DNA of 64,000 nucleotides from a phage, in sequence record PZ452581.1; one strand, written 5' to 3'. Position 1 is the first letter of the stretch. Each line of letters starts with the position of its first letter. The notes under the pieces are model-generated. The model ran no database searches and was not told the origin of the DNA. It worked only from the letters and a program-made list of their open reading frames with translations. Below, piece after piece: positions 4,039-60,071 of this stretch. The position numbers were made by a program, and so were the translations under genes.

Positions 4039-4075
4039 TTTCTAATCTCCGTAATTCTGTATCAGTAGTTGATAG

Positions 4076-4110
4076 TTGTATAGTACCACAGTATGCTTTG
4101 GTTGTAAACC
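4076..4110 (-). promoter_or_regulatory. T4-early-type sigma70 promoter upstream of motA
   Basis: On minus strand GTTTACA (-35) then ~17 nt then TGGTACTATA (-10-like), followed by the conserved leader caactatcaactactgatacag and SD before motA ATG. Confidence 0.55.
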
Positions 4111-4134
4111 GTTTTGTGAAAAAAATTTTTGAAA

Positions 4135-7094: not shown

Positions 7095-7194
7095 AGTAAG
7101 CGTTTAATACATCAATCATTAAAACGATTGGGAATATACTCAAAACTATTAGTATTATAACTACATTCCATATAGCTTTAATAATCTTTTTCAT
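7081..7194 (-). CDS. Small membrane peptide (about 37 aa)
   Basis: Track ORF 7081-7290 reads through the promoter; internal Met MKKIIKAIWNVVIILIVLSIF with GGAGG SD is the likely start. Confidence 0.4.
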   Translation of the reverse strand: MKKIIKAIWNVVIILIVLSIFPIVLMIDVLNAYFEFM

Positions 7195-7214
7195 TTTTGT
7201 TCCTCCGTAGTTGA

Positions 7215-7252
7215 TAGTTGTATAGTACCACGGAAGAACAGTCTTGTAAACA
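7215..7252 (-). promoter_or_regulatory. T4-early-type promoter
   Basis: Minus-strand GTTTACAAGACTGTTCTTCCGTGGTACTATA with conserved leader and GGAGG SD. Confidence 0.55.
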
Positions 7253-7436
7253 ACTTTTTTAAAAATATTCGTAATAAATGTGAATACCAACTACTACCGC
7301 TGAAACCTGTGCAACCCACCACGCACAAGCAATAAGTACAGAATTCAAAATTTTCATAATAACCTCATTACAAAAGTAAATGTTAAACAAATTACTGGAA
7401 TACTAATTAACCAAACAAAACACCACCACAGTGAAC

Positions 7437-7700: not shown

Positions 7701-7729
7701 TTTCCGCTCCAAATCCGTATCAGTTGATA

Positions 7730-7765
7730 GTTGTATAGTACCACGGTCCTTGTGGTATGTAAACT
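7730..7765 (-). promoter_or_regulatory. T4-early-type promoter
   Basis: Minus-strand GTTTACATACCACAAGGACCGTGGTACTATA with conserved leader caactatcaactgatacgg. Confidence 0.55.
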
Positions 7766-7783
7766 GTTTTGTGAAATTTTTTT

Positions 7784-8341
7784 TTAAATGGAAAGATACC
7801 ATCCGTTGTAGTTGCTTTTTCTTACAACCTTACGAAGGTCTTCTCTGTCACCGATGAACTTCGGAGTGTACTGGATGACACCTGGATGAATTTCTTTAGT
7901 GTTGAATATAATTATACAGTCAGCGACTTGATGATTTAGAATGGGCCCTAAATTTATTCCAGAACCATATGGATACTCTCCGCTGCATCCCGTTGTTACC
8001 GAAATCCAACGCGAGTCAGTTTGATGTGTCTTAACTTCTACACGAAGCCCACAGTATTTTGGATGTGCTAAAACATCCCATGCATATGTGTACGGATCAT
8101 CGACATCTTCTTGGCCTTTATTGACATATCCGCTTAGCCAATCTGCCACAAAAAACTCTGCGTACACAGCGATACGGCATCTTTCGATAACTTCTGCCTT
8201 ATCCTGATTTGGATTTTGTTTTAAAGAGTATCTTGCTGTATCAGCAATTTTGACCTTCATTTCACTAGTCAAGTCACTGTTCGATAGGGTAAATGTCGGA
8301 ATCTGAAATAGTCTCTGTAAACCCGGATTCGTTTTCTGCAT
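7784..8341 (-). CDS. denB: Endonuclease IV DenB (dC-specific)
   Basis: 185-aa ORF at the T4 denB position between ndd cluster and rIIB; length matches T4 DenB. Confidence 0.75.
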   Translation of the reverse strand: MQKTNPGLQRLFQIPTFTLSNSDLTSEMKVKIADTARYSLKQNPNQDKAEVIERCRIAVYAEFFVADWLSGYVNKGQEDVDDPYTYAWDVLAHPKYCGLRVEVKTHQTDSRWISVTTGCSGEYPYGSGINLGPILNHQVADCIIIFNTKEIHPGVIQYTPKFIGDREDLRKVVRKSNYNGWYLSI

Positions 8342-8427
8342 TAAACTTTCCTTTTACGTCGGAATCACTGATATTCATACAATAAATCATAGTTTCCCTT
8401 AAAACAAAAGGGCCGAAGCCCCTTATT

Positions 8428-8622
8428 TTATTTGAATTGTGCAATTCTTTTCTCTAGACACTCAGCATAAGATTTCATTGAGATGAACTGTGAAAGCAGC
8501 AGTTCTTGCTCAACTGCACTAACCGTTAGAAACTTTGTGCTTTCTAAAAATTTGCTCAGTGCATTAATTTTGAGCATTAATTGATCGTATTCTTCTTTTA
8601 CTCGTGCTTGATAACCTAACAT
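8428..8622 (-). CDS. Hypothetical protein (denB.1-like)
   Basis: 64-aa ORF flanked by UUCG-tetraloop hairpins. Confidence 0.5.
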   Translation of the reverse strand: MLGYQARVKEEYDQLMLKINALSKFLESTKFLTVSAVEQELLLSQFISMKSYAECLEKRIAQFK

Positions 8623-8654
8623 AATTTTCCTTAATATGATAAGGGCCGAAGCCC

Positions 8655-9593
8655 TTATTTAAATTGTTCAGTAACGTCTTCAACTACTTCGTATTGGCAG
8701 GTACGCATTTTAGCATCGTTGTAATCAATCGGAATTGATACTACATCACGTGGATGTACTTTAACTTTTACAACTCGGCTGGTTGAACTGCCAAAGTGAC
8801 GAATATAAGATTTAGAACACACATGCAGACCACGAGAACAAGTTTGTGTATCATCGTCATTCACACGAGTACGCGGCATTTTAACTACTTTACCAGGACT
8901 GTTATCAAAGGTGTTTGAGTGACAGTCAAAGTAGTTGTCACGAACTACTTTCCAAGCATAGAAGTAACCATCTTCTGTAATTTCAATATCGTTTGCTACC
9001 AAGAAATCAAAGAGTCGAGATACCGCTTTCTGGCTTGGGTTTTCCAGCAGATTTTCCAAGAACGGAAAATAAAATTCAAAGTTTTCACCTTTTTCCATCG
9101 AATCGAGAATACGATCAACTAAACCAGACCGTAATTCGATATTTTGATAGAACAAGCTTCCGCCTTCAATTCGAACATCGCCGGAAATATATTTTTCAAC
9201 AGCGCGACGAACATTAATTTTTTGTGCCGCTTCTTCCAACTTATCTGCTACAAGCAGATTAAGAATTTCCTGGAAGTTTGAATGAGTATTAGGAGTTGCG
9301 TTATAAGTTACACCGTCAACAGTAATTGAAATGAATTTTTTAGATGCATTCCAAATAATGTCAGATTTAGCAACTGGAGCAATAACTGCATCGCTATTAA
9401 CTTTAACTGTAATATCACCGCTAATAGTAACTTTAGAGCGTTTAGCTTCTTCAGCATTTTTCAAAACACGACGGATTGTGTCAACCGATACACCTTGCCA
9501 ATCAGCTAATTCCTGTTGGGTGTAATTACCACTTGAATACAATTTAACAATTTCAGCTTGTTCGTTTTTGGTCAGGCATTTAATATTGTACAT
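8655..9593 (-). CDS. rIIB: rIIB protein
   Basis: 312 aa, MYNIKCLTKNEQAEIVKLYSSGNYTQQELADWQGVSVDTIRRVLKN matches T4 rIIB. Confidence 0.95.
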   Translation of the reverse strand: MYNIKCLTKNEQAEIVKLYSSGNYTQQELADWQGVSVDTIRRVLKNAEEAKRSKVTISGDITVKVNSDAVIAPVAKSDIIWNASKKFISITVDGVTYNATPNTHSNFQEILNLLVADKLEEAAQKINVRRAVEKYISGDVRIEGGSLFYQNIELRSGLVDRILDSMEKGENFEFYFPFLENLLENPSQKAVSRLFDFLVANDIEITEDGYFYAWKVVRDNYFDCHSNTFDNSPGKVVKMPRTRVNDDDTQTCSRGLHVCSKSYIRHFGSSTSRVVKVKVHPRDVVSIPIDYNDAKMRTCQYEVVEDVTEQFK

Positions 9594-13871: not shown

Positions 13872-13937
13872 TTATCCTCGTTTGGTTTCGGGAATATTAT
13901 ACTCCGGTAATCATAAAGCTAAAGGCCCGAAGGCCTT

Positions 13938-14210
13938 TTATTTAAAACGGATAGTCGAATCCTTGAAGAATAGACCAGAACATACTGTTCCTTCTACTTT
14001 CTGCCCGGTAGGTCCAATAGCACGAAATCCAGTATGTTGGAAATCATTTTCAGAGCAACCGAACCAATTATATCCAGTGATTTCAATATTAGTAAAACCG
14101 CTTGAAGACAAAATTTTGGTTGCATTATCAGCATCAGTACATCCTACTAAAGATACTGCTAATACTAATGCTGCGATAGAACGATTAACATATTTCATAA
14201 TTTCACTCAA
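13938..14210 (-). CDS. Putative lipoprotein
   Basis: 90 aa with signal peptide and lipobox LVGC. Confidence 0.5.
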   Translation of the reverse strand: MSEIMKYVNRSIAALVLAVSLVGCTDADNATKILSSSGFTNIEITGYNWFGCSENDFQHTGFRAIGPTGQKVEGTVCSGLFFKDSTIRFK

Positions 14211-15685: not shown

Positions 15686-15770
15686 GTTGTTTTCTGTATC
15701 AGTAGTTGATATTGATATAGTACCATAATCAACTACTGATGTATATAGTTTTATGAAAAAATTTTAAACT

Positions 15771-25959: not shown

Positions 25960-26160
25960 ATGGTACAAAAATTAATGGCACTTGTTAATGCCATAAAAGG
26001 TAATAAAAAACGTATAGCTTTTACTATTTCTGCTATGGTAGGAATTTTACTCTGGAACTTTATTTTATCACCAATTGCAATTGCGCATGGTGTTAATATT
26101 CCAGTAGTTACTCTTGATACATTCGTAGATCTAGCATTTGCTTTAGTTGGGTTAATTTAA
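25960..26160 (+). CDS. Small membrane protein on the plus strand
   Basis: 66-aa hydrophobic ORF with AAGGAGG SD 6 nt upstream; occupies the gap between 56 and 61. Confidence 0.45.
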   Translation: MVQKLMALVNAIKGNKKRIAFTISAMVGILLWNFILSPIAIAHGVNIPVVTLDTFVDLAFALVGLI

Positions 26161-27185
26161 ATCTTAGCATATTTAGATAGCCGCATTTTAGCCATCAACC
26201 CCTGGGCAATATTATTTTTCATATATTCCATAATTTGTTCAGGGGTTGCACCTTCCTTTCTAATCATATCATTGACATCTTTTGATTTCCAGGGAGATTT
26301 ATCCCAAAACATAACCCTTTCTCCTGCATCAACTAATTTAGTCATTCGCTTAATAGTGTCAGGATGACGAGGTTCATTATCTAAAACCCACACACGTCTA
26401 TCTTTAAATGGAACAACTTCTAGGTCTAATTGACCACCCGTAATAGCTATACCATTTTCAATAAAAAGTGAATCTATAGGTCCTTCTAGAACATATACAT
26501 CACCATCTTTAACTCGTTCGACTCCATAGATTTTTGTTGCTTCAGGATAAGCTTTGATGGTGATATATTTTTGGGGAGCATCTTTCTTTAATGCACGTCC
26601 TTGAAAAGACTCAGCTTTTCCATTAGCATTATAAATTGGAATAACAAGACGAGGCTCAGGTATTTCCTTTTTATATGTTCCCGGTGCTATGCTATTAACT
26701 AATTTAGGCCATTCAGTTGTAAACCAAAGATATTTCCATTTATCCTTTGGAATACAACGAGCTTTTACATATTTTATAATTGCATGGTCTTCCGCCAGTT
26801 TATCTAATCGAACACATGACGGAAGAGATTTAATTATTTTCTTCTCAGGTTGTTTAGGAAGTTCTTTAGGTTTTTCTACTGGACGACTTTTACCTTTTTC
26901 TTTTCTTATTTCAAAGATATACTCACGATATAAATCAGGTTCAAACTCCTTTAAATATATTCCGATTGGTGCATGATAGTTACAGTTATAACAATGAATA
27001 TTTCCTTCATTATTATCACCATAATACCATCCACGAGCTTTATTCTGGTCGGTTTTTGAATCTCCACAAACAGGACATCTAAACCGTAATTTAAAAGTTG
27101 AACTATTATTTACTTGTGTGAATTTAGGTAAATGAGCTAATGCACGGTATGCAAACTCATTATCAATCCAAGGTATTGATGACAT
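26157..27185 (-). CDS. 61: DNA primase gp61
   Basis: 342 aa; zinc ribbon CPVCGDS...CYNC and TOPRIM region; matches T4 gp61. Confidence 0.95.
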   Translation of the reverse strand: MSSIPWIDNEFAYRALAHLPKFTQVNNSSTFKLRFRCPVCGDSKTDQNKARGWYYGDNNEGNIHCYNCNYHAPIGIYLKEFEPDLYREYIFEIRKEKGKSRPVEKPKELPKQPEKKIIKSLPSCVRLDKLAEDHAIIKYVKARCIPKDKWKYLWFTTEWPKLVNSIAPGTYKKEIPEPRLVIPIYNANGKAESFQGRALKKDAPQKYITIKAYPEATKIYGVERVKDGDVYVLEGPIDSLFIENGIAITGGQLDLEVVPFKDRRVWVLDNEPRHPDTIKRMTKLVDAGERVMFWDKSPWKSKDVNDMIRKEGATPEQIMEYMKNNIAQGLMAKMRLSKYAKI

Positions 27186-27353
27186 TTTTACTCTTCTTTT
27201 TCTTTAGATTCCTCTTTTTTCTTTTTAGGAATCTGTTCAGGGCCTTTATTTACTACAGCGCCTGACGTTGTTCCAGTAGAGATATTTTCAGGATTACCAC
27301 CTGAATCTCCAGCGACCATATCTTCTTTGATAAATTCTTTATATGTTTTCATA

Positions 27354-27710
27354 TTAACCTCTATTCATAAAAGCATTAAAAATTTGGTCATCAATAGATG
27401 GAATAGCAACCTTTTCGGCATCATTTAGCAAATCATTAATTTCATCAGATAGCATAACACATGTGCCTTTATTTCCTGTAATTGTTACTGCACAATTACG
27501 AACGTTTTCTTTATCAAAATTTAGGTTAATATTTTCGTAGTGAAAATCCTTTAATGCCGAATATATCTTTAAAATGAAATTGTCTTTTACTACAATAAAC
27601 CCAACTTCACTATTAAAACGTGGTTCATGGAAACTATAATAAACCTTTTCATCTATAAAATCGTATGAAATTTTTTCCATTTTTAAATATGAAAATTCAG
27701 AACTATACAT
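27354..27710 (-). CDS. Hypothetical protein (61.1-like)
   Basis: 118 aa; C-terminus SIDDQIFNAFMNRG shared with next ORF. Confidence 0.5.
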   Translation of the reverse strand: MYSSEFSYLKMEKISYDFIDEKVYYSFHEPRFNSEVGFIVVKDNFILKIYSALKDFHYENINLNFDKENVRNCAVTITGNKGTCVMLSDEINDLLNDAEKVAIPSIDDQIFNAFMNRG

Positions 27711-27711
27711 A

Positions 27712-28338
27712 TTAACCTTTATTCATAAAAGCATTAAAAATTTGGTCATCAATAGAAACATTTACTTTAGACTGTTTTTCTGATGGTAATTCATATCCAC
27801 ATATTACAATTTTGTAATCAATATCAAAATACACAGAAGCAATATGATTAATGATGTTTTCAGTAAAGTCTAAATCAACGTCAATATCTTTTTGACCACA
27901 GCCCAAAGGATAAATAATGCGAGTAATTCGATTATCTTTAACAAATATTCCACCGACATACTCTGTGCTGCGTTTAAAGTCTACACGCCGACGAAATGAA
28001 AAATATTCAGGCTCTCTATGAGCTCGGCTCATAGGACACAACGAGTAACTAGAATAAGAGATGTCAAATCCTACGCCTTCGATATGAGCCATAGTGTCAT
28101 GATTAAACCAATTATAATCGTACGCCAAATCCATTAGATTATAATATGTAAAAGACACCGGATTAACATCATTAGTCACAAGCATGTAATTAGCAACTGC
28201 TATAATTTCATTGTTTTTAACGAATACAAACCGTGATTGATGCGAATGACCTGGACCCGCGTTTTCACGATTAATGATATAACACTGGGCACTTTTATAT
28301 TTGTATGTATCTTTGCACTTGTGCATTTGATAGAGCAT
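27712..28338 (-). CDS. Hypothetical protein at T4 gene 61.2 position (possibly the TifA anti-ToxIN factor)
   Basis: 208 aa at the 61.2 position upstream of sp and dmd. My recollection that T4 61.2 is 208 aa and is TifA is uncertain. Confidence 0.5.
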   Translation of the reverse strand: MLYQMHKCKDTYKYKSAQCYIINRENAGPGHSHQSRFVFVKNNEIIAVANYMLVTNDVNPVSFTYYNLMDLAYDYNWFNHDTMAHIEGVGFDISYSSYSLCPMSRAHREPEYFSFRRRVDFKRSTEYVGGIFVKDNRITRIIYPLGCGQKDIDVDLDFTENIINHIASVYFDIDYKIVICGYELPSEKQSKVNVSIDDQIFNAFMNKG

Positions 28339-28631
28339 TATTCACCTACCACTTCAGCGATGATATTTTTGTTATTAAAGTTTTTATCGCAATACAGAAC
28401 ATAATTATACTGCATTACACCACCAGACTTAAGCTGTTTTTGCACTTCAGCTTTCATTTCAGGACGATCGCGCTCAACAATATTCATAATATCCGCTTCA
28501 ATTTGAGTTTCAACCTCAGTCTGATTAGCAGTCATAGACCATTCGCACAAATCTTTATCATATCCTGCCATAGCAGGCTGAGCAGCACAAGAAGCCAAAG
28601 TAAAAATTGTAGCAAAAATAAATTTTTTCAT
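28338..28631 (-). CDS. sp: Spackle (periplasmic lysozyme inhibitor)
   Basis: 97 aa with signal peptide MKKFIFATIFTLASCAAQPAMA; length and position match T4 sp. Confidence 0.8.
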   Translation of the reverse strand: MKKFIFATIFTLASCAAQPAMAGYDKDLCEWSMTANQTEVETQIEADIMNIVERDRPEMKAEVQKQLKSGGVMQYNYVLYCDKNFNNKNIIAEVVGE

Positions 28632-28691
28632 GATAATCTCCTCAGTAGTTTATGTTTATATAGTATCTCAATTTCCAACAAAAGTAAACAG

Positions 28692-28991
28692 CTATTTTAA
28701 AACTTCTGCGTAATCACATGTTACAAACTGTTTCTCTAGCTTAACGATTTTACGAAAATACCTTTTATACTGACGAATCTGCCTCTTCGTAGGACGTACA
28801 GCAAACTTAATAAATTCCACTCGACCAAATGGAGGACTTTCTTCTGCTGGAATATCTAACACCAATTCCCACGTATCTGCAATAAGTGCTTTGAATTGAG
28901 TATTTTTCCTGACGTTATACGGAGTAGGTTTAAATAAAACAATATGCATATTATCCTCGGCAATCCACTTCGCACACTTTCTTGTCATCAA
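28692..28991 (-). CDS. Hypothetical protein (61.4-like)
   Basis: 99-aa ORF. Confidence 0.5.
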   Translation of the reverse strand: MMTRKCAKWIAEDNMHIVLFKPTPYNVRKNTQFKALIADTWELVLDIPAEESPPFGRVEFIKFAVRPTKRQIRQYKRYFRKIVKLEKQFVTCDYAEVLK

Positions 28992-29133
28992 TGAAAGCTT
29001 TAACTAATGCTTTATTAACTTCAGCATATTGAGTAGTAGCCCATTGAACGTCATCTTTCATCATTGTGATTTCTTTAGTAAACATGCTTTCATTCTTAAA
29101 CCACCCCATAAAAACTACCTTTACCAATTCCAT
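28951..29133 (-). CDS. dmd: Dmd antitoxin (inhibitor of RnlA/LsoA)
   Basis: 60 aa, MELVKVVFMGWFKNESMFTKEITMMKDD... at the position directly upstream of gene 41; matches T4 Dmd as recalled. Confidence 0.8.
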   Translation of the reverse strand: MELVKVVFMGWFKNESMFTKEITMMKDDVQWATTQYAEVNKALVKAFIDDKKVCEVDCRG

Positions 29134-29191
29134 AACAATCTCCTCATTTAACCAACAAGACTACTATACCATAGTCTTGTCAGTTTGTAAA

Positions 29192-30619
29192 CTAAAATTT
29201 TAATTCATTTGCCAAAGCATCTAACTGAGCTCGAGTGGATTCATTTCTTTGATAGCGATTCTGTTCAGCCTGAATCTGTTGTGAACCTGCTACTTCACTC
29301 ACTTCGGTTGGAGTAGAATCTTGTTCAATTTCTACCCATTTTTGATTTCCTTTTTGAACACCCATCAAAAACTTATTCCACTTATTCTTATCACCATATC
29401 GTGATTTGATTTGCTTAATAAGTTGTTGTTCAGCAGCTGCCAACTCCTCGGTTTCAATGACCGCAAGCATAAAATCAGCTGTTGCTGGAAGACCAGCAGA
29501 TTCTGCGATATCACTCATGTTAACATCGGAAGAGTCCCAAGCTTGTTTACCAACCTGTGCTGCAGTCCAAAGAACAGTTTCGGTTTCAACAGCCAGAGCA
29601 CGCAATTCCTCTGCGATAGCTTTAACAGTTGTGTAACTATTTTCTGAATAAACTCTAATGCGGCAAGATTTACAAATACCTAGATAGTCGACAATAATGA
29701 TTGTTGGAACAAAATTCTTTTTGAGCTTCAATTCATTCAAGAGAGACCTGAATGTATTAGCGTCTGCTCCACCAGTAGGATACTGTTTAACGATTAAACG
29801 ACCGAGAGTAGATTTCTCACGCCATTTTTCCATTTTTCCTTTATACTCGGCGTAAGAAATATGTCCATCATCAATATCGTCAAGAGAAACATCGAGCATA
29901 TTAGCATCAATACGTTTAGCGCAGACTTCTTCTGCCATTTCCATGGAGATATAAAGAACGTTATGACCAAGCTGCAAATAATCTGCTGCCAATGAACACA
30001 ATCCTAATGACTTACCAACGTTAACACCAGCCATTAAAACGTTCAGTGTTCCAGTTTCAGCTCCGCCTTTAGTAATTTTATTTAGAATTTTGAGTCTAAA
30101 TGGAACCTTACGAGCTTTATTCATATAAGATAGCCAACGTGCTTCGTAGTCATCCATCCAATCATGACCAACGTAACTATCAAATGAAATTGATAATGCT
30201 TGGCGCATGATGTCAGGAATAGCACCAACATCCGGCATTTTCTTATTTCGTTTTTCCGGAGGAAGCTCAGCATTAGTTTGAATTTCGATTATTTTAGATG
30301 TGGCGTTAAACATCGCCCTTTGCTGAACATATTTTTCTGTTTCTTTTATTAACCAACTATGGTCTTCTGGAGAATCAGCCAGTTTTGAAATAAGTGTTTT
30401 TACACCAGAATATTCTGTTTCAGTAAATGAACTATTTTCTAATGCAACATTTAACGCATTAATAGATGGAACGCTATGGTACTCGTTGACATGAGATTTA
30501 ATTAATTTGAATGTATTTTTAGCTGGACCACTTTCAAAATATTCTGAATCCATATATGGCCAAACTTTTGAAAAATAAGCTTGATCAAATATAAGATGAG
30601 AAAGAATAATTTCTACCAC
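29192..30619 (-). CDS. 41: Replicative DNA helicase gp41 (DnaB-like)
   Basis: 475 aa; Walker A GVNVGKS and RecA-like fold; matches T4 gp41. Confidence 0.95.
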   Translation of the reverse strand: MVEIILSHLIFDQAYFSKVWPYMDSEYFESGPAKNTFKLIKSHVNEYHSVPSINALNVALENSSFTETEYSGVKTLISKLADSPEDHSWLIKETEKYVQQRAMFNATSKIIEIQTNAELPPEKRNKKMPDVGAIPDIMRQALSISFDSYVGHDWMDDYEARWLSYMNKARKVPFRLKILNKITKGGAETGTLNVLMAGVNVGKSLGLCSLAADYLQLGHNVLYISMEMAEEVCAKRIDANMLDVSLDDIDDGHISYAEYKGKMEKWREKSTLGRLIVKQYPTGGADANTFRSLLNELKLKKNFVPTIIIVDYLGICKSCRIRVYSENSYTTVKAIAEELRALAVETETVLWTAAQVGKQAWDSSDVNMSDIAESAGLPATADFMLAVIETEELAAAEQQLIKQIKSRYGDKNKWNKFLMGVQKGNQKWVEIEQDSTPTEVSEVAGSQQIQAEQNRYQRNESTRAQLDALANELKF

Positions 30620-30628
30620 ACTTACTCC

Positions 30629-30991
30629 TTAAAAGAATTTAAACTTTTTCTTTGACCTTTTATTAAATGCATCTTGTAGTTGCATTGTAATACATTTTTC
30701 TACATGAGGAGCTAACTCAGCTTTTCTTTCTTGGTCAAGAACAGCAAAGTCCATTACAACCTTTCCATCAACCCAATCCAGTTTAGTTACATACACAATG
30801 TGTGTAGAACCATCTTCTAGTTTAATGACAATCTCCTGGATAACATTTTCCATGGCAGATTTAATTATCTTAAGAGATTCATTAAAAAGACGTTCTTTTC
30901 TTTCTTCTTCCCCCTCCGAAGAGGGGGATTCATCGATAATTTCTAGATCTAAGTCTAAATCATCTTTATTCATTAAATTCTTCCATATCAC
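30629..30991 (-). CDS. 40: gp40 head vertex assembly chaperone
   Basis: 120-aa ORF between 41 and uvsX. Confidence 0.6.
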   Translation of the reverse strand: MIWKNLMNKDDLDLDLEIIDESPSSEGEEERKERLFNESLKIIKSAMENVIQEIVIKLEDGSTHIVYVTKLDWVDGKVVMDFAVLDQERKAELAPHVEKCITMQLQDAFNKRSKKKFKFF

Positions 30992-34844: not shown

Positions 34845-34874
34845 TTTATTCTCCAAATCCGTATCAGTTGATAG

Positions 34875-34910
34875 TTGTATAGTACCATGGAAGAACGGGG
34901 ATGTAAACAG
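34875..34910 (-). promoter_or_regulatory. T4-early-type promoter
   Basis: Minus-strand GTTTACATCCCCGTTCTTCCATGGTACTATA with conserved leader. Confidence 0.55.
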
Positions 34911-34989
34911 TTTTGTGAAAAAATTTTTAATGAATTTACAGGACCTAGAATCATCTATTTTTCCTAAGTATAGATTTATATTACTTGTA

Positions 34990-37722: not shown

Positions 37723-37800
37723 AGATATTCCTTAGTTTATAGCCCGAGTTATTAGGCTCTTGATATATTATACTCCAAATAAGGGGCCGAAGCCCCTTGC

Positions 37801-38169
37801 TTAATTACCAATCGTATATTTAGGAACGAGTTTCCATTCGTGTTTTTGTTTAAAAGAAATAACTCGGAAGTTATTGGTTAAATCTTTCATAAAAGTTCTT
37901 TGACCAGGAACGATTTCAATCAGCCCCCAATCTTCTAACAGCCACGCAATCGAATCACGACGAACTTCATCTTCTTCTGTCATTTCAACCTGACGGCCAT
38001 CCATACGAAGCATTTCTTTAAAATGAACGATATAGTATAGTCCTTTTTTCTGAAGAATGTGGCAGGACTGATACAGAACTTTATCTTTATTATTAGCAAT
38101 TCCCATACGAGTCAAAGTTTCTTTTACTTTCAGAAAATCTTCAGGTTTTTTAAGAGTAATTTCAATCAT
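37801..38169 (-). CDS. regA: Translational repressor RegA
   Basis: 122 aa, MIEITLKKPEDFLKVKETLTRMGIANNKDKVLYQSCHILQKKGLYYIVHFKEM matches T4 RegA. Confidence 0.93.
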   Translation of the reverse strand: MIEITLKKPEDFLKVKETLTRMGIANNKDKVLYQSCHILQKKGLYYIVHFKEMLRMDGRQVEMTEEDEVRRDSIAWLLEDWGLIEIVPGQRTFMKDLTNNFRVISFKQKHEWKLVPKYTIGN

Positions 38170-39695: not shown

Positions 39696-39744
39696 AATTT
39701 CCTCATTCAAGTTTTAGTGTAAATTTAAGGGCCGAAGCCCTTTA

Positions 39745-40431
39745 TTAAAAATCGTGGGTAGAATCAGCTTCAAGAGCTACTACATAATTCGCGTGTTCAC
39801 CTTCAAATTTAGCAGCACCCTGTTTACCTTTTGCCCAAAGCAGAAGTTTGTAATTTCCTGGTTGCATTTTCATATTTGCCATATTGATAATGAAATTAAA
39901 TGTATTTTCACCATCATAATCACCAAGAGTCAAAGAATATTTAACGCGGGTCAAAGCAGAATCTTCTACTTTATTAAAACCGTTAATTACGATTTTACCT
40001 TCTTTTACTGTGATAGCAATTGTATCAATCTGCAGACCACGAGATACACGCAACAGTTGTTGAAGGTCTTCAGCTTTAATTTCGGTAACAACAGATGCTA
40101 CCGGGAATGGAATTGGTTTATTAGGAGCAACTACTGTACTCGGATCAGCTGCTGGCCAAAAAATTGTTGAACGGGCATCAGCAATTTTAATATTTCCATC
40201 TTCTGACTGGGAAATTTCTGCATCGTCATTAACTAGAGACAGAATACCGAGAAAACCGTTCAAATCGTAAATCGCTACATCAAAATCAATAGTGTCAGAA
40301 ATATTTGCTTCTGCATAAGTTGTACCATTAACCGCGCGAGTCATAATAAATTGACCGGATTTAAGCATAATACCAGAGTTAATAGTAGCGAAATTTTTGA
40401 GCAGAGCAGTGGTATCTTTAGACAGTTTCAT
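39745..40431 (-). CDS. 45: Sliding clamp gp45
   Basis: 228 aa, MKLSKDTTALLKNFATINSGIMLKSGQFIMTRAVNGTTYAEANISDTIDFDVAIYDLNGF matches T4 gp45. Confidence 0.95.
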   Translation of the reverse strand: MKLSKDTTALLKNFATINSGIMLKSGQFIMTRAVNGTTYAEANISDTIDFDVAIYDLNGFLGILSLVNDDAEISQSEDGNIKIADARSTIFWPAADPSTVVAPNKPIPFPVASVVTEIKAEDLQQLLRVSRGLQIDTIAITVKEGKIVINGFNKVEDSALTRVKYSLTLGDYDGENTFNFIINMANMKMQPGNYKLLLWAKGKQGAAKFEGEHANYVVALEADSTHDF

Positions 40432-44275: not shown

Positions 44276-44451
44276 ATATCAAGAACCGTCATTGAAATGC
44301 AAAATAAAATTATTGAAATAAATCCATCTGGAGTGCTAAAGAACCCAATCCAACATGCTCTAGTGAATAGATAAAATGCGAGAAAAAGTATCACATATCC
44401 AAGAAATATCATTATATCAAACTCCGTATAAAGCTAAAGGGCCGAAGCCCT

Positions 44452-45654
44452 TTATTTTGTAATAATGTCAAACTGCTCTTTAAAGCAGAAGCTTGAATCT
44501 TGATGCTGATACAAAAATTCATAAGCTTTTTCACGTTCACGGTCATAAAGAGCTCGGTCAGATGACAGTTCTTTAATACGTTCAAATGTTGATTCCATGT
44601 CATTTTCATCAAACCAAACGATACCGCTATCATGAGAAATTAACGGAGTATTATCAACACGGAATTTTAAATTTTCGCCAGTAGATTTCCAAAATACTGG
44701 AATTGTTCCACATGCACCAAGCTCGAGATGAGTATATTCTAAAGAACGTTGTAGATATTTTTTATCTAATTTACTCAGCTGATAACCAAATCCGGATTTA
44801 CTCATGCGTTCAAGCATTTCGCTATTTACATAACGGTCAAGAATTTGCGTTGGCAAATTAGGAGCAATTTTAATTTGGTCTACTTGATGAAGACGATAAT
44901 ACTCGTATGGAATTCCTTTTTCTTTAATAGGAATGAACGCTGGAGAACGTTCCAGACCTTCCATAATAGTACTTAGTCCTGCAGGTTTAAGATGTTTTTC
45001 ATGAAAATCAAACATCTGATAAAAACCTTTCCATGTAGTAGTACGACCAATCCAACGGTTGATATTCATGTTAATTTCAGAAACATCTTTCCAGTAGGTT
45101 GATCGAACCTTCGCAATATCCATAGGAGGCTGAAAGTTGTATACGGTCGGTGCTTCTTCAACATCATCAAACAGTGAAACAGTTTCTGGATACCATTCTT
45201 TCATTAAAACTTTATTAAAATCACCATTATCAGAATGGCTAAAAATAACATCAGCTCGACGAACAGTTTCTTCTAATCCCAAATTTCGGCGCAAAGAAAG
45301 AGAAGAATGGTCATGTTGATAAACTACAACACGAACCGAAGGTTTAATGTTATCAATAATTTTTTTATAGTTATTAATAGTGTCTTCTTCGACTGAAGTA
45401 GCAGGAACTGAATTGATAATTAGAATATCACAATCATTTACCAGCTTAAGTGTTTTATCGTATTCTTTTGCCAATAAAACCGGAATTGAAAATGACTTAT
45501 AATCATGCGCGCAATTACGAGTAAATGATTTATCTTTAGCATAAACCAAAGTTACTTCATGACCATTTTTAATAAACCAATCACGTTGCTCAAGAGAAAA
45601 TTTAGTTACGCCACAACCTTCAAGACCTCGAGCCATAAAAATGCATACTTTCAT
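44452..45654 (-). CDS. agt: Alpha-glucosyltransferase (hmC DNA alpha-glucosylation)
   Basis: 400 aa, MKVCIFMARGLEGCGVTKFSLEQRDWFIKNGHEVTLVYAKDKSF matches T4 alpha-gt. Confidence 0.9.
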   Translation of the reverse strand: MKVCIFMARGLEGCGVTKFSLEQRDWFIKNGHEVTLVYAKDKSFTRNCAHDYKSFSIPVLLAKEYDKTLKLVNDCDILIINSVPATSVEEDTINNYKKIIDNIKPSVRVVVYQHDHSSLSLRRNLGLEETVRRADVIFSHSDNGDFNKVLMKEWYPETVSLFDDVEEAPTVYNFQPPMDIAKVRSTYWKDVSEINMNINRWIGRTTTWKGFYQMFDFHEKHLKPAGLSTIMEGLERSPAFIPIKEKGIPYEYYRLHQVDQIKIAPNLPTQILDRYVNSEMLERMSKSGFGYQLSKLDKKYLQRSLEYTHLELGACGTIPVFWKSTGENLKFRVDNTPLISHDSGIVWFDENDMESTFERIKELSSDRALYDREREKAYEFLYQHQDSSFCFKEQFDIITK

Positions 45655-48037: not shown

Positions 48038-48089
48038 ACATTATCCTCAATTGCGTTAAAATTTTATTATCCAAAAAGGGCCGAAGCCC

Positions 48090-48290
48090 TTAGCTAAACT
48101 GTTTGGCACCCTTCCAGCCTTCGTACATCATTGCGGCTGATATTAATATTGCTCCTGCGCATTTTGAATATTTGTGATTCCAAAACCAGTTCAGAAAAAC
48201 TTCGTCATCAATACCCTGGGCTATCATATTTTCAAAGAACTGGCGACGAGCTTCAGCAATTCGTTGCGATAATTTAGATTCAGGATTCAT
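48090..48290 (-). CDS. Hypothetical protein
   Basis: 66-aa ORF. Confidence 0.45.
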   Translation of the reverse strand: MNPESKLSQRIAEARRQFFENMIAQGIDDEVFLNWFWNHKYSKCAGAILISAAMMYEGWKGAKQFS

Positions 48291-59696: not shown

Positions 59697-59719
59697 TTTC
59701 TGTTCCTCCGTAGTTGATA

Positions 59720-59756
59720 GTTGTATAGTACCACAGAGGAACGGTCTTGTAAACAA
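59720..59756 (-). promoter_or_regulatory. T4-early-type promoter
   Basis: Minus-strand GTTTACAAGACCGTTCCTCTGTGGTACTATA plus conserved leader. Confidence 0.55.
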
Positions 59757-60071
59757 CTAAAAGAAACTTCTTTCACAATTTTTTCCACTGAACCAAGCGC
59801 TCACTGCTTTCTTAGTCTCAGGAGCAGTGTTATCCATAAACCATTCAAAAGCAGCCTTTTTATGATTCTGGAGGGCTTCTCGGGCTTTAATCTGCTCACG
59901 GTCTATTAACACTAACATATGAGCCTTTCTTGTCACCAAGGGCTTCTTATGATTTTTTGAATACTCCCAATCATTTGTCCATCGCATCGTTGTTGCGAAC
60001 TGAAATACTGCTTCTTTAATTTTAGTTTCGTAAATTTCACGAGCCTTTGAGTATAACATCATTACCTCCAT
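59757..60071 (-). CDS. Hypothetical protein
   Basis: 104-aa ORF. Confidence 0.45.
   Translation of the reverse strand: MEVMMLYSKAREIYETKIKEAVFQFATTMRWTNDWEYSKNHKKPLVTRKAHMLVLIDREQIKAREALQNHKKAAFEWFMDNTAPETKKAVSAWFSGKNCERSFF

Follow-up and report, generated by a model that had tools for sequence, protein, structure and literature searches.

A near-identical 49-bp module at the 3' ends of adfA and of a probable half-size paralogue contains the middle promoter P61 in a Tequatrovirus genome

Two adjacent genes of a T4-like phage, located between the primase gene and dmd, end in almost the same DNA sequence. This raises the question of what the shared 3' end represents and what keeps it nearly identical. 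The window analysed is the whole 64-kb stretch (64,000 nt of sequence record PZ452581.1). It is a Tequatrovirus sequence, and many genomes of this genus, e.g., PinkRuby, RB18 and Kha5h, are 98% identical to it in the region of the repeat. A repeat search of the window shows a direct repeat of 2 x 49 nt, with 48/49 identical positions (98%) and a start-to-start spacing of 358 bp. The two copies, A and B, differ by a single C/T mismatch at position 12, which leaves uninterrupted identical runs of 11 nt and 37 nt. With three or fewer mismatches allowed, the pattern occurs at exactly two sites in the window, and no 49-nt repeat site was found at the same tolerance in 100 dinucleotide-preserving shuffles. 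The pair has the highest identity of all repeats of at least 40 nt in the window and is the sole near-perfect one of such length among the repeats of at least 28 nt. A preliminary description of the locus had reported a shared end of about 45 bp; the repeat is slightly longer than this. The range given for the second copy (27702-27748) is about 8 nt off (27708-27756).

All genes of the repeat region are encoded by the minus strand. By comparison with the annotated T4 genome, their order is gene 41, dmd, 61.4 (tifA), sp, 61.2, an extra 118-aa ORF, 61.1 and the primase gene 61 (Table 1). Each repeat copy, read on the minus (coding) strand, comprises the final 13 codons and the stop of one ORF together with the ATG of the following ORF, i.e., ...TCT ATT GAT GAC CAA ATT TTT AAT GCT TTT ATG AAT A(G/A)A GGT TAA T ATG. 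DNA identity ends abruptly at the repeat edges. The 118-aa and 208-aa proteins share the C-terminus SIDDQIFNAFMN(R/K)G, and here the preliminary description was correct, as it was in placing the locus between primase and dmd. Its gene names need revision: it spoke of 61.1/61.2-like genes, while 61.1 is the 54-aa ORF, the 208-aa ORF is 61.2 and the 118-aa ORF is without a T4 counterpart. It also took 61.2 for an anti-ToxIN factor. The product of T4 61.2 is AdfA, which inhibits the DarT1 toxin (PMC11825919); TifA, which counteracts ToxIN, is encoded by 61.4, and dmd-tifA is the unit for which amplification has been published (PMC9391042). A likely annotation trap is thereby corrected. The T-even region between gene 41 and primase is an anti-TA island with dmd, tifA and adfA. 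As a separate point of annotation, the mechanical ORF list gives a 99-aa ORF with a TTG start at 28692-28991 that overlaps dmd; from the annotation of T4 and the alignment with it, the true tifA is the 85-aa ORF with an ATG start.

Table 1. Positions of genes, repeat copies and promoter elements in the window
Feature	Position	Strand	Evidence and remarks
Gene 41	29192-30619	-	T4 record comparison
dmd (61.5)	28951-29133	-	T4 comparison; co-amplified with tifA in a published T4 evolution experiment (PMC9391042)
tifA (61.4), 85 aa, anti-ToxIN factor	28692-28949	-	T4 comparison; outside the repeat
sp	28338-28631	-	T4 record comparison
adfA (T4 61.2), 208 aa, anti-DarT factor A	27712-28338	-	Pfam PF23813, T4 alignment
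118-aa ORF, PHROG 4122	27354-27710	-	Without T4 counterpart
61.1, 54 aa	27188-27352	-	Start ATG within repeat copy A; T4 comparison
Gene 61, DNA primase, served by P61	26157-27185	-	T4 comparison; PMC2988021 Table 1
Repeat copy A	27350-27398	-	Last 13 codons of 118-aa ORF (SIDDQIFNAFMNRG), stop, 61.1 ATG; identical to the single copy of T4
Repeat copy B	27708-27756	-	Last 13 codons of adfA (SIDDQIFNAFMNKG), stop, ATG of 118-aa ORF; 48/49 identical to copy A
MotA box TAATGCTTTT, copy A	27369-27378	-	9/10 matches to wwwTGCTTtA
-10 TAATAT, copy A	27351-27356	-	Across the 118-aa ORF stop and first bases of the 61.1 ATG; predicted start 27344
MotA box TAATGCTTTT, copy B	27727-27736	-	Sequence pattern
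-10 TAATAT, copy B	27709-27714	-	Predicted start about 27702, within codon 3 of the 118-aa ORF

The T4 middle-promoter consensus has a MotA box (wwwTGCTTtA), a spacer of 12 +/- 1 bp and a -10 element TAnnnT (PMC2988021). On the coding strand both repeat copies have TAATGCTTTT, a 12-nt spacer and TAATAT, in agreement with this consensus. In T4 the TAATAT of the single repeat copy is at 19134-19129, with TAATGCTTTT 12 nt upstream of the -10 hexamer. The start site of the identified middle promoter P61 is 19122 (PMC2988021 Table 1, after Marshall, Sharma and Hinton 1999), which is exactly 7 nt downstream of the hexamer. The repeat therefore contains P61, the primase middle promoter, a feature that the preliminary description had missed. 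The promoter in copy A is identical to the T4 P61 sequence and copy B differs by one spacer base, the coding-strand G to A change that is also in the R/K codon. Both copies are of the P61 type, which gives the window two such sequences at a distance of 358 bp (the second a putative promoter), where T4 has one. The GenBank record of phage Lutter independently has a 27-nt promoter annotated at both homologous positions. The pattern TGCTT-N13-15-TANNNT has 32 matches in the window vs 14.4 expected, mostly on the minus strand, and both copies are among them. A sigma-70 promoter scan, a tool whose scope lies outside the MotA class, shows no site in either copy on the coding strand, and a terminator scan of the region found none. 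The putative copy B promoter may be active; since P61 starts inside codon 3 of 61.1, copy B would not allow the 118-aa ORF to be expressed from its own ATG. Eight of the 13 tail codons overlap the MotA box, spacer and -10 element. No mention was found in the literature cited that P61 lies within codons for the conserved C-terminus of an AdfA-family protein.

The 208-aa ORF is, by sequence comparison, a full-length AdfA orthologue. It matches the Pfam family AdfA (PF23813) over the full length with an E value of 7e-133 and 440.9 bits (curated cut-off 27 bits), is 95% identical to T4 gp61.2 and has the same position, between sp and 61.1. The window AdfA has His165 in the motif NIIN-H-IAS, and an RB69-like homologue has Arg at that site. 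The R164H change in RB69 AdfA activates the protein, and the His is needed for DarT1 neutralisation (PMC11825919). A PDB sequence search with AdfA gave no match, and Foldseek of AdfA against viral models gave no informative fold outside the AdfA family. Alleles of adfA fall into two classes, a T4-like one of 208 aa and an RB68-like one of 210 aa. These are strongly different over the first approximately 55 residues and about 90% identical after that, which suggests a mosaic gene.

The 118-aa ORF is probably a half-size paralogue of AdfA, with a single domain that corresponds to the AdfA C-terminal half. Its score with the AdfA profile is 34.7 bits on model positions 113-211 (cut-off 27), and BLASTP of the protein against AdfA residues 109-208 gives an E value of 2e-8 over 106 aa. 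Foldseek of the AdfA model has a match to a 118-aa viral protein with an E value of 7e-4 and a TM-score of 0.53 (by target). The Pfam score is mostly from the tail; with the 14-residue tail removed there is no Pfam match at E values up to 1. An hhalign comparison of the tail-less 118-aa protein and AdfA gives P values of 6e-4 over 39 columns and 1.4e-3 over 55 colinear columns. Without the tail, the evidence that the 118-aa body is homologous to AdfA is no more than suggestive. With AdfA (T4 gp61.2, PF23813) the whole protein has in common a match to the C-terminal half above the cut-off and an identical tail. Unlike AdfA, the 118-aa protein is half the size, has Cys73 aligned with the critical His, so that this His feature is absent, and is in a separate PHROG (4122 vs 3781 for AdfA). 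The AlphaFold2 model is poor (pLDDT 55). The family is narrow, with 5 clusters in one database search and, in a search of 1.84 billion representatives, only three clusters at 50% identity.

These data bear on the origin of the repeat. The preliminary description proposed recent duplication or gene conversion, and of the two only exchange between the copies is plausible. Under a recent tandem duplication the 118-aa gene would be a partial adfA copy of young age, and the repeat a remnant that has yet to diverge. Such an event would leave neighbouring genes in the same orientation, a 118-aa protein colinear with the AdfA C-terminal half and near-identical 3' ends, as is observed. However, the bodies are only about 22-26% identical outside the identical tail, and DNA identity does not extend past the repeat. 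The gene types are also separate in other genera: orthologues of the 118-aa protein occur in other T4-like genera at 41-49% identity, and the paralogues are therefore old. In addition, T2-type phages have the 118-aa gene without adfA. A recent duplication is accordingly very improbable.

The tail peptide is found beyond Tequatrovirus. In other T4-like genera, with primases about 60% identical, several proteins at the locus end in S(I/V)DDQIFNAFM(N/K)R(G/D) followed by a GGTTAATATG-type junction. The tail-bearing proteins are AdfA, orthologues of the 118-aa protein (47-50% identical) and a 145-aa family (PHROG 8539). Outside the tail the 145-aa family shows no significant similarity to AdfA; a comparison with the AdfA N-terminal half gives an E value of 0.14 and an hhalign P value of 0.12, which are not significant. 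The tail codons in these genera differ synonymously (GAC, CAG, GCC, TTC, CGA) and the MotA box is degraded (TGCC...). Since the codons change and the peptide is kept, the peptide is under selection in its own right, and with the MotA box degraded the promoter does not account for conservation in these genera. AlphaFold2 predicts AdfA residues 196-205 as a helix with low confidence (pLDDT in the 50s). Loci L011 and L013 (approximately 1734-2592) provide an independent second case of tail repetition. Here adjacent ORFs of different families, a PHROG 8539-like ORF of 157-167 aa and a 118-aa orthologue of 117-119 aa, both end in DDQIFNAFMKR(D/G). Loci L010-L017 of other T4-like genera have a 73-aa ORF (approximately 2597-2818), 34-41% identical to TifA, between the tail-bearing ORF and 61.1. 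These phages also have a tifA-like gene upstream, i.e., there seem to be two tifA paralogues at the locus.

Constraint of this kind could be the whole explanation, with purifying selection for both peptide and promoter-junction plus codon bias, and no gene conversion or rearrangement role for the repeat. Conservation of the peptide across genera despite synonymous changes is consistent with this, as is the overlap of 8 of the 13 codons with elements of a mapped promoter. The genome is AT-rich with a strong codon bias, and codon bias together with the promoter constraint could explain much of the tail identity. Two observations argue against constraint acting by itself. The first is the distribution of codon choices: tail codons group by genome and genus, not by gene family, and in Tequatrovirus GAT/GAC variants, which are upstream of the MotA box, are present in both paralogues. 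Common codon choices in the paralogue tails suggest exchange between the copies, as read from few informative sites within 13 codons. The second is the T4 sequence, which lacks exactly one repeat unit of the window and has its junction within the repeat. Constraint only is thus considered unlikely.

The comparison with T4 61.1/61.2, a check proposed in the preliminary description, provides the details of this difference. T4 aligns with the window on both flanks; exactly the 358-bp unit is missing and one repeat copy is left. This, with the grouping of tail codons by genome or genus, is what makes exchange plausible. Recombination between the two copies would yield an arrangement of the T4 type. 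The arrangement was followed in 50,697 phage records by counting single contiguous alignments across each junction with E values of at most 1e-48. The strict E value is needed, as default settings merge half-matches 358 bp apart into one place. Three combinations of adfA and the 118-aa gene are found and are roughly equally common. The T4 type, with adfA adjoining 61.1, is present in 167 records; both genes, with adfA adjoining the 118-aa gene, are present in 158; and the T2 type, with sp adjoining the 118-aa gene and without adfA, is present in 141. The 118-aa body is thus found in 299 phage records (158 + 141), including T2, RB32, RB18 and RB68, and is absent in T4. RB68 and Sf21 have both genes. 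The total for the three types is close to the 471 repeat-bearing records. The sp/118 junction of T2 keeps AGAGGTTAGTATG, a relic of the 3' end of the repeat. Together with arrangements of two cassettes in other genera, this relic favors a two-gene ancestral state, a direction of change that we infer. An IMG/VR contig of the T2 type (L007, 1682-2337) has a different tifA C-terminus (93 aa) and about 370 extra bases between tifA and sp, which may represent another indel in the island.

The preliminary description further suggested that the repeat could drive segmental amplification of an anti-ToxIN gene. T4 amplifies anti-defence loci by recombination at short homologies (PMC9391042; PMC13096335), and unequal crossing-over between 49-bp repeats is mechanistically possible. 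However, tifA is not flanked by the repeat. The copies flank only positions 27399-27707, i.e., the 118-aa ORF and not adfA or tifA, and the repeat would be able to amplify only the 118-aa cassette. In addition, no clean natural duplication is found. Among about 470 phage records, a tandem cassette duplication junction is present only in Yersinia phage phiD1, where the sequence has ambiguous bases. Adaptive amplification of an anti-ToxIN gene is therefore a highly improbable role for the repeat. The phiD1 locus (NC_027353.1, 2198-3156) has four 49-nt copies and two 100%-identical 118-aa cassettes, with a 194-nt partial unit with many Ns between them. It may be either a real heterogeneous duplication or a mis-assembly, and with Ns in the duplicated stretch it was not accepted as a natural tandem duplication. 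Amplification of dmd-tifA in T4 with ToxIN as the selective agent (Srikant et al. 2022, PMC9391042; SegB dependence, 2026, PMC13096335) is similar to the situation proposed for the repeat in that it concerns the same anti-TA island and the same general process, where recombination at short homology changes gene copy number. It differs in the gene pair (61.5-61.4), in the homologies of 2-10 bp compared with the 49-bp repeat, and in being experimentally selected.

The reading that best accommodates the data, with a probability of roughly 0.7, is that of a 3' module common to two old AdfA-family paralogues, which would have three roles and in addition serve as a recombination site. The 49-bp module is the common 3' end of two adjacent early genes, adfA and its probable paralogue. 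It encodes the conserved C-terminal peptide SIDDQIFNAFMN(R/K)G with its predicted helix, provides a stop and a closely spaced next start (GGT TAA T ATG), and carries the MotA-dependent middle promoter P61 of the primase gene. The module would be kept near-identical by selection for the peptide and for the promoter-junction, plus occasional exchange between copies by putative gene conversion, while the bodies diverged to approximately 25% identity. Because the module includes both the stop and the next start, homologous recombination from copy to copy would remove or add a whole gene cleanly. T4 is the one-copy form, with adfA only, and the window the two-copy form, in which the promoter sequence is duplicated 358 bp upstream of the original.

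A more speculative and doubtful extension is that the tail is a portable plug. The helix, combined with the stop/start junction and the middle promoter, might dock several small proteins that are unrelated or highly divergent (PHROGs 3781, 4122 and 8539) to a common partner. ORFs with the tail would be gained, exchanged or lost in the island through homologous recombination with primase expression undisturbed, and the 118-aa protein would be a new anti-defence factor with a target other than DarT1. Functions of the tail and of the 118-aa protein are putative here. The common-module reading, taken without this extension, implies that one short sequence may be under overlapping constraints as peptide, promoter, gene junction and recombination site. 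The cassette boundary in the island is a 49-bp module that doubles as the primase promoter P61 and a conserved protein tail. About 300 sequenced phages, including T2, carry an uncharacterised half-size AdfA-like gene in the island, and its 118-aa product is a concrete candidate for a counter-defence protein. The parts are known; the duplicated promoter-in-tail arrangement, the 118-aa paralogue and a tail common to several families are new and of moderate interest.

The cassette structure is reminiscent of PeSLs, the mobile cassettes with regulatory function of T4-type phages (Arbiol et al. 2010, PMC2839356; Comeau et al. 2014, PMC4122927). These are intergenic and pair a strong sigma-70-like early promoter with a terminator stem-loop. 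As in PeSL cassettes, the dispensable ORF of a variable region here lies between copies of a short regulatory repeat, and these copies delimit the segment that one close relative has and another lacks. Unlike PeSLs, the window module is coding, has a MotA middle promoter, and shows no stem-loop and no Rfam match. RNA folding of the two copies gives z-scores of -0.5 and +1.5, no better than shuffles, and an Rfam search of positions 26000-30700 with E values up to 1 shows no match. An RNA element or PeSL-type stem-loop at the repeat was rejected, as folding is not above that of the shuffles.

Other repeat families in the window resemble early-promoter and terminator-hairpin motifs. A 62-nt repeat family with six members (GTTGATAGTTGTATAGTACCAC...TGTAAAC) resembles T4 early promoters read on the opposite strand and is located at positions 4052-4129, 7194-7255, 7707-7784, 15689-15766, 34851-34928 and 59697-59758. 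GC-rich hairpin repeats, AAGGGCCGAAGCCCTT followed by T-runs, are terminator-like elements and are present at positions 8393-8432, 8626-8665, 13907-13946, 37767-37806, 39712-39751, 44422-44461 and 48076-48103.
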